Origin: Escherichia phage vB_EcoM_WFbE185
Sequence record: MK373778.1
Reading direction: 5' to 3' (one strand)
Length of the DNA stretch: 64,000 nucleotides
The position numbers and the translations under genes are program-made. The notes beneath the pieces are model-generated. The model was not told where the DNA came from. It worked only from the letters and a program-made list of their open reading frames with translations, and ran no database searches. This document shows positions 35,633 to 39,241 of the stretch, piece after piece; positions within the stretch are counted from its first letter, which is position 1, and the number at the start of each line of letters is the position of its first letter.

Positions 35633-36001
35633 TTATGCAACTTTAATCCAATTGTCTAAATTTAAAACACCTTTGGCTTTCATTTTTTCGATCAGGTTAT
35701 CTGCTGTAATGCGTCCATTTTGATACCATGTAACATCTTCAGAGTAACCAGTTTCTTCGTCAACATATGTTTCTGAACGAATTTTACCGGTAATAATAGT
35801 TTTTAATTCGTATGTGTCACCTGTGAAAAAGTTTGCTAACACAATTTTCCAAGAGAAATCATCAGAAGGACCTTCAGGGGTCATACAACCTACGAACTCA
35901 AATTGCTCTTTGTATAACATCCACTGGAATTCTTTAATTTCGATAGCTTTATAACCGTCGTGGTCTTTACATTTGATGTATGAGTTCAGATTGATTTTCA
36001 T
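35633..36001 (-). CDS. hypothetical protein (T4 30.8-like position)
   Basis: 122 aa; early promoter upstream. Confidence 0.5.
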   Translation of the reverse strand: MKINLNSYIKCKDHDGYKAIEIKEFQWMLYKEQFEFVGCMTPEGPSDDFSWKIVLANFFTGDTYELKTIITGKIRSETYVDEETGYSEDVTWYQNGRITADNLIEKMKAKGVLNLDNWIKVA

Positions 36002-36108: not shown

Positions 36109-36126
36109 GGGAGACCGAAGTCTCCC
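36109..36126 (-). terminator. intrinsic terminator after the small basic ORF
   Basis: Minus strand GGGAGAC-UUCG-GUCUCCC followed by UUUUG. Confidence 0.65.
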
Positions 36127-36131
36127 TAAAA

Positions 36132-36311
36132 TTATGCAACAACCTTTCCAAAACGAGAAGCATCATCTCGAAGAACTGCACGTGCTCTGCGCATGATCTT
36201 CTCAACTGTTTGATTAATACGAGAGTTCGACCCACGCTTGTATCCAGCGCGTTTAGAGGTACCATCAACTTTCTTTTCAACTGCTTTCTTTGCTTTAGCT
36301 TGTTTTGCCAT
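36132..36311 (-). CDS. small highly basic protein
   Basis: 59-aa ORF, below the track cutoff, found by hand: MAKQAKAKKAVEKKVDGTSKRAGYKRGSNSRINQ...; SD AAGAG; terminator hairpin 6 nt after its stop. Confidence 0.5.
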   Translation of the reverse strand: MAKQAKAKKAVEKKVDGTSKRAGYKRGSNSRINQTVEKIMRRARAVLRDDASRFGKVVA

Positions 36312-36523
36312 TATAAATTCTCTTTAAATGAAAATGCAGGACTTATTGACATTGCCTGCGCAAGCCCTCAAGGGGAACATAGGTTTTGGATATTTAACGA
36401 CAGGATAACCATAAACCCGTCATCATACCAACCACGACTTAGACAGATAACCTTTTTCTGACGCGTGATAGTACAAAATACATTCAAGAGGTACACCGTA
36501 AAACTGCCGTGGTCTTAAAACTA

Positions 36524-36543
36524 TAATGATTCGCAAATCATTA
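36524..36543. repeat. perfect 20-bp palindrome TAATGATT-CGCA-AATCATTA in a non-coding region
   Basis: 8-bp perfect inverted arms with a 4-nt centre, read directly from the sequence; function unknown. Confidence 0.6.
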
Positions 36544-36606
36544 ATCAGACAGTTCGACGGCTCCTCGATTTTCTAGCCGCACTTAAGGTAGCGAATCACC
36601 TAAAAC

Positions 36607-36855
36607 TTATTTAAGGGTAATAACAAAATGACGTACTGCTTTACGAGCTGCAGAAGCCAAAGGCTTAGCATATTTCAGTTCATCTTTTGCTTCCAGTTCA
36701 GAGGCCAAAGCCGCCTGTACCGGGTTCAGACGTTTGAAATAATGCAGGATTTCCAGTGCTTCGGCTTCAACATCAATCGACGCGCCGTAGTTTTCGTGAC
36801 CGTTATTCCATGCGTTTCGTTGCAGTTCAAGAGCGTGTTGTAATTGTTTAATCAT
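36607..36855 (-). CDS. rIII: RIII lysis-inhibition accessory protein
   Basis: 82 aa; position next to gene 31. Confidence 0.85.
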   Translation of the reverse strand: MIKQLQHALELQRNAWNNGHENYGASIDVEAEALEILHYFKRLNPVQAALASELEAKDELKYAKPLASAARKAVRHFVITLK

Positions 36856-36979: not shown

Positions 36980-37312
36980 TCACTTATAAAGACACGGAAT
37001 AGCTTTATAGTGGCATGTTACGAATTTCTGTTTAATTTCTTTAGGTTGTTTAAGTCCCAAAGCCACAAATGGATGTGGAACATTTCGAATTTGTCCAACT
37101 GGTAGTGGAGTCAAATCACCGACTTCAACAAAACCTTCAGGAACATCAGGACCTACAGAATGAACTACACATAGTTCAGGAACTTCACCTTGAACACGTT
37201 TACCAATCACAAGTCCTGATTCGGTAACTTCTTCATCACCTGCTTGAGCGGGTTCAGAAACCAGAATGACATATTCACCAACAGCACGAATTGGGAGTTG
37301 TACTTCAGACAT
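36980..37312 (-). CDS. 31: gp31 GroES-like co-chaperonin for capsid folding
   Basis: 110 aa; [29 protein letters not shown]... matches recalled T4 gp31. Confidence 0.95.
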
Positions 37313-37342: not shown

Positions 37343-37367
37343 ATAATACCATACTATTCGTAAAGCA
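37343..37367 (-). promoter_or_regulatory. middle promoter (MotA box + -10) for gene 31
   Basis: Minus strand reads TGCTTTA, 12 nt, TATTAT, then SD AGGAA. Confidence 0.5.
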
Positions 37368-37678: not shown

Positions 37679-38249
37679 AAAAGTTTCGGATTTGTTCCCA
37701 ATTCAGAGAACGAAGATTATTACGAGAGTACTGAATTACTTCAATACCGGCTTGTTTTAGAATGTCTGCCCAATTTTCAGGAGATCTGTCATATAATTCT
37801 GCGTATACAACCTTTTTAATACCTGACTGTGTAATAGCTTTAGTGCAATCAGGACACGGAGAAAGCGTCGTATATAACGTAGCACCTTCAATAGAATTAC
37901 CTTTACGAGCTGCAAACAAAATTGCATTCAATTCAGCATGGATTTCATTATTAGCAGACCATGCACTATGAGCCGCTCGATGTTCTTTAGCCAAAACAAA
38001 ATTATCCACCCGTCCAAATGCTGTAGTGCCTTCTTTATGCCCAGCAACGATGACCGGGCTTGGTTTATTCTTCAACCAACCGTTTTCGGATGCATGTTCG
38101 CAACAGTTTGTACCACCTGAAGGAGAGCCATTATAACCTGTAGAAATAATGCGTCCATCTTTTTCAATGACGGCACCAACTTTCCATGAACAACATTTTG
38201 ATTCTTGAGAAATCAAATAAGCAATTTGAAGATATGTGCTAGCTTTCAT
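37668..38249 (-). CDS. cd: dCMP deaminase
   Basis: 193 aa; zinc motifs HAELNA and PCPDC. Confidence 0.95.
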   Translation of the reverse strand: MKASTYLQIAYLISQESKCCSWKVGAVIEKDGRIISTGYNGSPSGGTNCCEHASENGWLKNKPSPVIVAGHKEGTTAFGRVDNFVLAKEHRAAHSAWSANNEIHAELNAILFAARKGNSIEGATLYTTLSPCPDCTKAITQSGIKKVVYAELYDRSPENWADILKQAGIEVIQYSRNNLRSLNWEQIRNFCGE

Positions 38250-39241
38250 TATTGAACCTTATTAATATAAGTTAACAGCTCTTTAGTTTGTTCCCAACTG
38301 ATGCACGCATCGGTAACGGAAACGCCATAGGACATATTATCAGAAATTTTTTGATTTCCTTCATGTAGGAATGATTCTATCATAATTCCTTTGACCAAAT
38401 CATTAGCTGCTAAATTTTTACCAATACCAATTTGATTGCTATAATGCCCAGCAGCGTTTGCATGGCTACAGTCAACCATTACATAATGATTCAGACCTAC
38501 TGCACTTGCTTTGTTAGAAGCTTCTTGAATATCAGAAGAATGATAGTTCGGGCCGTTGGTCCCGCCACGCAATACGATATGCGTATTCTGATTACCTTCA
38601 GCTTCAACAATGCCTACAGTACCATCGACGTCCATACCCATATACCGATGAGGCCAGGCGGCACTATACATCGCGTCTGTAGCTACTTTAATAGAACCAT
38701 TGGTTGCGTTCTTGAAGCCTACGCACATCGGTAGACCTGAAGCAATTTCACGATGTGTCTGACTTTCAGTCGTACGGGCGCCAATAGCAACCCATGAGAA
38801 AATACCAGAAAGATACTTAATCGTGAATGGGTCTAATACTTCAGTTGCTAATGGAAGTCCCATACGTAGAAGTTTACGACACAATGTTCGTGCAACTATA
38901 AGACCGTGGTTCATATCAAAACTTCCGTCAAGATATGGATCATTTACAAGACCTTTCCAACCTACGGTAGTTCGAGGCTTTTCAAAATAAACGCGCATCA
39001 CTAACAGAACATTAGGAAGACGAGTTTGAAGTTCAGCCAGACGTTTGCCGTATTCAACAGCAGCAATAGGGTCATGAATTGAACAAGGACCTACAACAAT
39101 AAGTTTGCGTGGGTCTTCACCGTTCATAATCGAATTAACTTGTTCGCGATGAGAAGCCACTTGTGATGCGTAAGCTTCCGACAAAGGAATAATCTCAGCC
39201 AGTTCTTTTGGAGAAATAAGTTTTCCGACGACAGGTAACAT
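38249..39241 (-). CDS. class I DAHP synthase (phospho-2-dehydro-3-deoxyheptonate aldolase, AroG/AroF/AroH-type)
   Basis: 330 aa; motifs GPCSIHD, KPRTTVGWKG, GARTTESQ, DCSHAN, ESFLHEGNQ, TDACI align with recalled E. coli AroG active-site regions; SD AAGGA; stop overlaps the cd start. Confidence 0.9.
   Translation of the reverse strand: MLPVVGKLISPKELAEIIPLSEAYASQVASHREQVNSIMNGEDPRKLIVVGPCSIHDPIAAVEYGKRLAELQTRLPNVLLVMRVYFEKPRTTVGWKGLVNDPYLDGSFDMNHGLIVARTLCRKLLRMGLPLATEVLDPFTIKYLSGIFSWVAIGARTTESQTHREIASGLPMCVGFKNATNGSIKVATDAMYSAAWPHRYMGMDVDGTVGIVEAEGNQNTHIVLRGGTNGPNYHSSDIQEASNKASAVGLNHYVMVDCSHANAAGHYSNQIGIGKNLAANDLVKGIMIESFLHEGNQKISDNMSYGVSVTDACISWEQTKELLTYINKVQ

Follow-up and report, generated by a model that had tools for sequence, protein, structure and literature searches.

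What is encoded in the 295 bp that separate the genes rIII and 30.9 of Escherichia phage vB_EcoM_WFbE185 (sequence record MK373778.1)? We addressed this question in a 64,000-nucleotide (nt) stretch of the genome, referred to here as the window, whose positions are used throughout. A sequence-only reading of the window had singled out 36312-36606 as an unusually long gap without genes and had proposed a small RNA, a long structured 5' untranslated region (UTR), an operator that binds a protein or what is left of a deleted gene. The gap, which lies between rIII and the open reading frame (ORF) of gp30.9, is non-coding, and the only ORFs wholly internal to it are mechanical ones of 26-42 amino acids. 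Its most informative element is a ToxI-type antitoxin repeat at 36569-36601, which, together with an RNA pseudoknot at 36382-36421, had not been noticed in that reading. We consider it reasonably probable that the spacer is an RNA counter-defence and leader region in which this repeat, termed E1, acts as an RNA decoy against ToxIN. The spacer and the repeat are placed as follows.

36312-36606, transcribed strand minus: the rIII-30.9 spacer, 295 bp
36563-36606, core 36569-36601, minus strand: E1, one complete ToxI-type (type III antitoxin) repeat, UUUUAGGUGAUUCGCUACCUUAAGUGCGGCUAGAAAAUC

At the sequence level, the homology between E1 and ToxI is solid. The element starts 4 nt past the rIII stop codon and agrees with the 36-nt ToxI repeat of E. 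coli, AGGTGATTTGCTACCTT(T)AAGTGCAGCTAGAAAT, at 30 of 33 positions (three mismatches, with 0 such matches expected by chance) and with the ToxI repeat core at 31 of 34; a published primer confirms where the ToxI repeat starts (PMC5772629). When the whole spacer was searched by blastn against 72,556 plasmids and 5,426 E. coli genomes, spacer nucleotides 1-44 alone gave matches, at 87-90% identity and at several places per record. The matched places are tandem arrays of 36-37-nt units in 4 to 13 copies, as in E. coli pTA141-2 (5.6 x 36 nt), P. atrosepticum pPA21A (13.1 x 37 nt) and E. coli pU90-1 (4 x 36 nt). Each array stands directly 5' of a type III ToxN/AbiQ toxin gene on the same strand, and these toxins match the Pfam family ToxN_toxin (PF13958) with E = 1e-37 to 1e-43. 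The sense strand of ToxI is also the transcribed strand of the phage. Used as a blastn query, the 44 nt of E1 further match the annotated ‘pseudo-ToxI’ of Pectobacterium phage PhiTE, with 89.7% identity over 39 nt.

The ToxI fold is retained as well. The ToxI pseudoknot pairs G2G3U4 with A13C14C15 and U8-C11 with G23-G26, and E1 forms all seven of these pairs; across 18 bacterial and phage variants, 92.1% of the cells are paired, with three compensatory pairs, a result reached in none of 500 shuffles. E1 differs from ToxI by U9C coupled with A25G, by the shortening of UUU to UU and by an extra 3' A, classes of change that leave antitoxicity unimpaired (Blower et al. 2012, PMC3475682). It retains C27 and U28 (GCGG-CU-AGAAAA), each of which is essential for antitoxicity (PMC3475682). 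No toxN gene accompanies the repeat, whose neighbours are rIII and gene 30.9, and we therefore class E1 as a phage mimic rather than as a toxin-antitoxin system. GenBank holds about 88 near-full E1 matches in T4-like genomes, mostly of Mosigvirus and Gaprivervirus; E1 is absent from RB69, IME08-like and LF82-8 phages.

Single ToxI-like repeats (AGGTGATTTGCTACCTTAAGTGCAGCTAGAAAT) were also observed in unrelated phages, among them Salmonella 7-11, Klebsiella T5-like phages, Vibrio JSF12, Erwinia IT22 and a 341-kb contig (sources L126, L128, L130 and L132-L136, with GenBank matches H318-H329); the PhiTE copy alone is annotated. Judged by eye, some of these orphan repeats stand right after a promoter-like TTGACA-N17-TATAAT sequence or before a terminator-like hairpin. 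The T4-type E1 (L003; UUCACUGCCUUAGUGUGAGCUAAAUC) also resembles what we take to be the type I-F CRISPR repeat, GUUCACUGCCGUAUAGGCAGCUAAGAAA, with UUCACUGCC and GCUAA..A in common, and the 3' half of ToxI (GCAGCUAGAAAU) can be likened to the 3' half of that presumed repeat. Both likenesses may be coincidence.

Downstream of E1, the transcribed strand contains a series of further RNA structures.

36485-36567, minus strand: module A, a long irregular hairpin in which GAGG/CCUC, GCCGU/ACGGU and GAACUGUC/GGCAGUUU stack below an apical hairpin
36524-36543, minus strand: the 8-bp apical hairpin of module A, which is the palindrome of the earlier reading
36433-36467, minus strand: module B, a hairpin CACG-CGUCAGAAAAAGGUUAUCUGUCUAAGU-CGUG
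36421-36428, minus strand: conserved GUAUGAUG ahead of E2
36382-36421, minus strand: E2, an H-type pseudoknot
36416-36421 with 36399-36404, minus strand: P1 of E2, GACGGG paired with CCUGUC
36407-36410 with 36382-36385, minus strand: second helix of E2, loop GGUU paired with AACC
36386-36398, minus strand: conserved E2 linker GUUAAAUAUCCAA, 13 nt
36361-36378, minus strand: E3, a small bulged hairpin GUUCCCCUUGAGGGCUUG, consensus GUACCC-loop-GGGRCUUG
36336-36359, minus strand: E4, a hairpin GCAGG-CAAUGUCAAUAAGU-CCUGC with a conserved loop
36318-36334, minus strand: a weak hairpin UUUUC-AUUUAAA-GAGAA, apparently covering the Shine-Dalgarno sequence of gene 30.9, as read from the sequences

We compared this arrangement across a sample of 42 distinct rIII-30.9 spacers, taken from phages in GenBank and from contigs in IMG/VR; by blastn, the spacer is matched in 775 phage records. 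The pseudoknot E2 was found in 40 of 40 syntenic spacers. Its covariance model scores 60.7 bits at 36376-36422, the sole strong match in the window, and finds E2 once per T4-like contig. Both helices covary, and the observed score was reached in none of 500 shuffles. P1 occurs as GAC/GUC, GGC/GCC, GUC/GAC, GUGGA/UCCAC and GUU..AAC, and the second helix as GGUU/AACC, GUUGGUU/AACCAAC, GUGAG/CUCAC, GUAGU/ACUAC and CAAGGUU/AAUCUUG. A conserved GAUGAC upstream of E2 can in addition form 6 bp with GUUAUC of the E2 loop (36404-36426, minus strand); this helix and the combination of P1 with the pseudoknot helix are mutually exclusive, which raises the possibility of a conformational switch. The type II arrangement lacks GAUGAC.

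E3 is present in every spacer, and another hairpin always comes next. The stem of E4 changes to AACUGG/CCAGUU in STML-198 and L025, with the loop GYCAAUAAG kept. In other genera, the place of the weak hairpin before gene 30.9 appears to be taken by UCUCC-AAAAU-GGAAGA, again as read from the sequences.

Module A folds into 25 pairs according to RNAalifold, five of which show compensatory change; at three positions, 10-14 of the 14 sequences have a G·U or U·G pair. The cells are paired in 99.1% of cases, compared with 25-63% when the partners are slid, and the covariation was reached in 0 of 500 shuffles. In the relative L026, the two arms of the palindrome, UAAUGAUU/AAUCAUUA, have become UAUCGAUU/AAUCGGUA, with U-A replaced by C-G and A-U by U·G. 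Compensatory changes together with invariant G·U pairs indicate selection on RNA and not on a DNA operator. Of the possibilities raised in the sequence-only reading, a small RNA or a long structured 5' UTR is the one that these data support, because the helices covary and the G·U pairs exist on the transcribed strand only. A pairing of the palindrome (CAUUAUA) with the 30.9 start region (UAUAAUG) was also considered and dropped, as it is not kept in Dhakavirus.

In module B, the inner stem CAGA/UCUG is replaced by CAGC/GCUG in LF82-8 and L028. Part of the module, GGUUAUCUGUC (36447-36457, minus strand), nearly equals the E2 core GGUUAUCCUGUC (36399-36410), and module B may be a degenerate duplicate of E2.

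The conservation of the spacer exceeds what its neighbours would predict. Over the 98-nt E2-E4 segment, the identity to four relatives is compared below with that at third codon positions of the flanking genes.

T4: E2-E4 segment 98%, rIII third positions 66%, 30.9 third positions 87%
IME08: E2-E4 segment 95%, rIII third positions 80%, 30.9 third positions 55%
VR26: E2-E4 segment 92%, rIII third positions 69%, 30.9 third positions 43%
STML-198: E2-E4 segment 84%, rIII third positions 47%, 30.9 third positions 60%

Since the E2-E4 segment is more similar than third codon positions, purifying selection must act on the non-coding sequence. A spacer in which conservation exceeds that of synonymous sites in the neighbouring genes, and whose differences between phages are single-base insertions and deletions, does not look like the remnant of a deleted gene, as had been suggested. 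Nor do the spacers of relatives contain a conserved protein-coding gene: no reading frame is kept on either strand. A hidden coding gene was rejected because the ORFs are short and T4 differs by three separate 1-nt insertions. We likewise discarded an antisense ORF of 26 amino acids and an upstream ORF (uORF) before gene 30.9, for which the frame or the start codon is not conserved, and a 37-amino-acid ORF with a TTG start that one GenBank record annotates in the spacer and that we consider spurious. In that record, L002 (MK327943), the ORF is a ‘hypothetical protein’ at 1324-1437, which corresponds to 36423-36536 of the window on the minus strand. In other records, the name ‘1,4-alpha-glucan branching enzyme’ is attached to the spacer region or to gene 30.9. 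The TTG ORF and the branching-enzyme labels are probably annotation artefacts.

The spacers are mosaics of a few common blocks that were gained, lost or re-ordered across genera. The W143 spacer consists of E2-E4 only, block B is missing in T4, E3 stands ahead of E2 in TG1, L028, L030 and L041, and VR26-type phages carry a 140-nt block, E5, where B would stand. These blocks occur in Tevenvirinae only. The rIII gene of Acinetobacter phage AM101 overlaps the ORF that follows it, and in the record of Aeromonas phage ZPAH1 the gap between rIII and an ORF labelled gp30.9 measures 11 nt; the E2 covariance model found nothing in AM101, ZPAH1 or Proteus phage phiP4-3. If the ZPAH1 annotation is right, the pairing of rIII with 30.9 predates the RNA, which was inserted between both genes.

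E5 is an extra domain of about 140 nt (GCGGCAAGUGCAUGC...GCUAACGGUGUGCAACAGAUAAGAGC) with its own closing stem, carried in the spacers of the relatives L005 (VR26), L017, L021, L027, L029, L031-L036 and L038-L040. RNAalifold gives it 44 pairs, 17 of them with compensatory changes; it occurs in one copy per genome, always near E2, and has no match in Rfam, in the plasmids or in E. coli. We also observed a T4-type copy of the whole spacer within a tRNA gene cluster in L042 (1290-1640; IMG/VR contig 3300045988_074297) and in L043. This copy comprises E1, A, E2, a mutated E3, E4 and the 30.9 ATG fused to the last 28 rIII codons, and it is flanked by 13-nt direct repeats TTTATTGGAGATT, the downstream one extending into a tRNA at its 5' end. 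The whole copy has the appearance of a cassette moved by transposition or recombination.

Searches for known RNA families and bacterial counterparts placed the domains outside the collections covered. Rfam 15 gave 0 matches at the gathering score in the whole window and no relevant match with E up to 10 for the spacer or for a 106-nt slice of it; across ten relatives and the window it reported only tRNAs (in L042) and the terminator after 30.9. ARAGORN reported no tRNA or tmRNA. The stable T4 RNAs rnaC and rnaD were considered as relatives and dropped, as neither nhmmer nor blastn-short detected any similarity. A pattern scan of genome contigs for E2 returned 35 single matches, about the random estimate and all with low covariance-model scores, and a scan of metagenomes for tandem E2 patterns yielded no covariance-model match. 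The spacers of the window and of L031, the latter with E5, gave no blastn match to plasmids or E. coli genomes for any domain other than E1.

The locus belongs to the genus Mosigvirus, with 99.8% identity to vB_Eco_mar005P1 across an 801-nt query, and the genes around the spacer are all on the minus strand. The surrounding features are listed here.

37343-37367, minus strand: match to a MotA-type middle promoter, upstream of rIII
36980-37312, minus strand: gp31
36979, minus strand: late-promoter sequence TATAAATA, upstream of rIII
36903-36875, minus strand: sigma-70-like site, upstream of rIII
36607-36855, minus strand: rIII (phrog_1457); the spacer lies within the run of its mRNA
36132-36311, minus strand: gene 30.9, encoding a basic protein of 59 amino acids (phrog_1427)
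around 36109-36130: terminator hairpin after gene 30.9
35633-36001, minus strand: gene 30.8

T4 has the same gene arrangement with a spacer of 244 nt. Early, middle and late promoters serve rIII (PMC9409239). Given the promoters upstream and the terminator 3' of gene 30.9, the spacer would be transcribed as the middle of an rIII-30.9 mRNA; literature searches returned no small RNA of T4 and no transcription start site within this spacer. The product gp30.9 is mostly helical and is modelled as one long helix with low confidence (pLDDT 68), and searches for relatives in Pfam and the PDB found none. The uORF before gene 30.9 has 13 codons (AUGUCAAUAAGUCCUGCAUUUUCAUUUAAAGAGAAUUUAUAA; 36312-36354, minus strand), and its UAAUG end overlaps the 30.9 start codon. 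One inserted nucleotide in T4 and T6 joins the uORF to the reading frame of 30.9, and this accounts for the annotations with 72 amino acids and for older ones of ‘11.1 kDa’. The AUG of the uORF is absent in Dhakavirus and Gelderlandvirus, and it is therefore probably no genuine ORF. Further away, an ORF of 330 amino acids (38249-39241, minus strand) adjoins the dCMP deaminase gene; its homologue in phage ATK47 is annotated as 2-keto-3-deoxy-D-arabino-heptulosonate-7-phosphate (DAHP) synthase of the AroG superfamily. An enzyme of the aromatic amino-acid pathway would be an unusual auxiliary gene in a T4-like phage.

How could such a segment serve the phage? ToxIN is an abortive-infection system in which the unstable, pseudoknotted RNA ToxI holds the endoribonuclease ToxN inactive (PMC5772629). 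The shut-off of host transcription by a phage depletes ToxI, and the freed ToxN destroys phage mRNA. We hypothesize that the spacer is carried in the rIII-30.9 mRNA from early, middle and late promoters and folds like beads on a string. Once shut-off has freed ToxN, the phage transcript would supply E1 as a look-alike of ToxI; E1 would bind ToxN, perhaps being cleaved by ToxN at the AAAAU that directly follows the repeat, and this binding would blunt abortive infection, as the pseudo-ToxI of PhiTE does. We infer that E1 could neutralise ToxN in vivo. Modules A and B together with E2, E3 and E4 would be selected cis-acting RNA structures that may present or stabilise the untranslated segment. 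The domains may also gate the translation of 30.9, whose ribosome-binding site would lie in the weak hairpin right after E4. With E2 and E3 universal and nearly invariant, and with a constant hairpin over the ribosome-binding site, a cis role of the blocks other than E1, perhaps with a bound protein, is the more economical assumption.

Several observations weigh against the decoy function. PhiTE escapes by expressing pseudo-ToxI, for which an expansion to several repeats was needed (PMC3475682); E1 is single-copy in the window and in every spacer, with no tandem repetition. Of the two unit boundaries at which ToxN would cut (AA^AU), the one 3' of E1 reads AGAAAAUC, as in the PhiTE pseudo-ToxI, and the one on the 5' side (UAAGUUUUAGG) has no such site. 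In T4, E1 is degenerate, with 24 of 34 positions matching and the U4-A13 pair broken, and toxIN strongly restricts T4, T2 and T6. RB69, the T-even phage least affected by toxIN, has no E1 despite its relative resistance, which rules out the expectation that the resistance of RB69 tracks with E1. RB69 is restricted when ToxN carries TifA-escape substitutions, and its resistance, being lost against such ToxN, rests on the TifA protein. RB69 and T4 partly contradict the biological role suggested for E1. For the other five domains, the searches made detected no counterpart in bacteria. Finally, the fold energy of the whole spacer is not exceptional (z = -0.34), a value that is uninformative for a set of small domains of which one is a pseudoknot.

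A rival explanation is a purely cis-regulatory UTR, in which all domains, E1 included, control mRNA stability and translation. The spacer would then protect rIII on its 3' side and serve 30.9 as a 5' leader or as an operator, to which the basic gp30.9 itself may bind after the model of the T4 gene 32 pseudoknot operator, and E1 would be the relic of an old recombination with a toxIN plasmid, with no present role against defence. The constant position of E2, E3 and the ribosome-binding-site hairpin upstream of 30.9 fits this account, as do the dispensability of E1, missing in RB69, IME08-like and LF82-8 phages, the small, basic and mostly helical nature of gp30.9, and the use of RNA operators, a pseudoknot among them, in T4 autogenous control (PMC3014915). 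A decaying relic, however, would not be expected to retain all nucleotides known to be important for ToxN binding as well as compensatory pairs. Similar orphan ToxI-like repeats in unrelated phages, some with an apparent promoter or terminator-like hairpin when judged by eye, also speak against a relic, and the 11 nt between rIII and the gp30.9-labelled ORF of ZPAH1 imply that 30.9 may do without a leader. We regard a purely cis-regulatory UTR as possible but rather unlikely. The opposite extension of the decoy idea, that each bead (E1, A, B, E2, E3, E4 and, in relatives, E5) mimics a different host immunity RNA, is improbable in our view. The mimicked RNAs would be other type III antitoxins, such as TenpI-like ones with repeats of about 50 nt, or defence RNAs; cassettes would be swapped as hosts change, and the domains would possibly act together with the small basic gp30.9. 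It is true that E1 is demonstrably an antitoxin mimic, that the beads, each with a closing stem of its own, fold independently and have come, gone or changed order across genera, that type III antitoxins are themselves pseudoknots strung on one transcript (PMC5772629), and that TenpIN systems with repeats of 39-57 nt exist in enteric bacteria (PMC3401426). Yet the searched bacterial tandem arrays, plasmids and E. coli genomes contained nothing like E2, A, B, E3, E4 or E5, and E2 and E3 are universal and near-invariant over genera with different hosts, which fits a phage-internal function better.

Two further explanations were considered. The elements named in the sequence-only reading could be signals in the DNA: the palindrome an operator, the minus-strand hexamers an early-like promoter of 30.9, and the plus-strand ones a MotA-type promoter running antisense. 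The hexamers and the palindrome are indeed present where that reading placed them. The palindrome TAATGATT-CGCA-AATCATTA (36524-36543) is perfect, with 8+4+8 nt. About 0.03 perfect 8-bp hairpins are expected per 295 nt, and the window holds 16, compared with 6.3 in Markov-1 random sequences, so that the palindrome taken alone is only modestly unusual. It forms the apical hairpin of an RNA domain that shows compensatory change in one relative, and the invariant G·U pairs would turn into A·C mismatches if the opposite strand or a DNA cruciform were to fold; an operator at this site finds no support. On the minus strand, GTGTAC (36491-36496) and TACTAT (36468-36473) do exist with a 17-nt spacer, but their identity as a promoter is not borne out: GTGTAC matches TTGACA at two of six positions, the sigma-70 scan does not report the site, and neither the halves nor their spacing are conserved (spacing 11 in T6, no -10 in T4, no -35 in LF82-8). 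On the plus strand, TGCTTTA (36291-36297), in itself a good MotA-like box, is followed after 13 nt by TTATAA, a -10 that breaks the TAnnnT pattern; the candidate is outside the 14 strict MotA-type matches of the window (12 of the 14 on the gene strand), and its TGCTTTA box consists of Lys/Ala codons of gene 30.9. An explanation through DNA signals is highly improbable. We find it barely credible that the rIII-30.9 mRNA is cut by E2 acting as a pistol-like, self-cleaving ribozyme, even though the env25 pistol has a similar P1 hairpin, a loop that pairs downstream and a CG-UUAAAUA linker after P1 (CCACGUUAAAUAG compared with CUGUCGUUAAAUAU; PMC6101554). No Rfam Pistol match appeared at E up to 10 on the 106-nt slice; E2 has no conserved P2/P3 and no junction of fixed length with a 2-nt G-U cleavage site, and the sequence past the pseudoknot is wholly different between genera. 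A similarity of E2 to the pistol and hatchet ribozymes was set aside as a matter of suggestive words only.

T4-like phages and toxIN are a current model of defence and counter-defence, and in the searchable literature the protein TifA is the sole T-even counter-measure to toxIN described. A phage-encoded mimic of ToxI is already known from PhiTE (PMC3475682). The literature searched, including the work on T4 and toxIN, does not describe an intact single orphan ToxI unit in T4-like coliphages, a ToxI unit embedded in a conserved mosaic of RNA domains, or a Tevenvirinae-wide pseudoknot such as E2. The approximately 88 T4-like genomes with E1, together with the orphan repeats of unrelated phages, suggest that RNA antitoxin mimicry is a common standing strategy, and mimicry would then be more than the laboratory curiosity of one Pectobacterium phage. 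T4 itself carries a multi-domain RNA segment, 98% conserved and outside the RNA family databases, that includes the pseudoknot universal to Tevenvirinae and opens a new question on the biology of rIII and 30.9.

Among known systems, the arrangement of the spacer recalls the PeSL cassettes, short conserved intergenic modules at exchange points of T4-like genomes (PMC4122927). PeSLs are multi-copy and combine an early promoter with a terminator stem-loop, whereas the spacer domains are single-copy and without a promoter in our scan; an assignment to PeSLs was rejected for the wrong copy number and content. With the pistol ribozyme (PMC6101554), E2 has in common the P1 hairpin, a pseudoknot made by pairing of the loop with downstream sequence, and the linker UUAAAUA; it differs from that ribozyme in having no P2/P3, no cleavage junction and no covariance-model match. 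Like the T4 gene 32 mRNA operator, E2 is an H-type pseudoknot in a T-even mRNA leader with an A/U-rich stretch after it that contains UUAAA (PMC3014915). There is no sequence similarity to that operator, and E2 stands 70-250 nt from the start codon.

For E1, the closest comparisons are with ToxI itself and with the pseudo-ToxI of PhiTE. The ToxI RNAs of P. atrosepticum and of E. coli plasmids have the same 36-nt unit and the same pseudoknot pairs as E1. A real toxI locus consists of a tandem array of 2 to 13 units (given as 1.9-5.6 for bona fide toxI) followed by a terminator and toxN, whereas E1 is one unit with no toxin gene. The PhiTE pseudo-ToxI is, like E1, a phage-borne orphan non-coding ToxI repeat in sense orientation and without toxN, and it shares with E1 the U9C/A25G compensatory pair, the 2T loop and the extra 3' A. 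Of the two phages, PhiTE is the one with a known escape phenotype. Wild-type PhiTE has 1.5 DNA repeats, which do not amount to one full RNA unit, and carries C27G and U28A; E1 is a full unit with C27 and U28 intact. PhiTE is an rv5-like phage and the E1 phage a T4-like Mosigvirus, and, unlike the pseudo-ToxI of PhiTE, E1 is set between two genes within a mosaic of other RNA domains.

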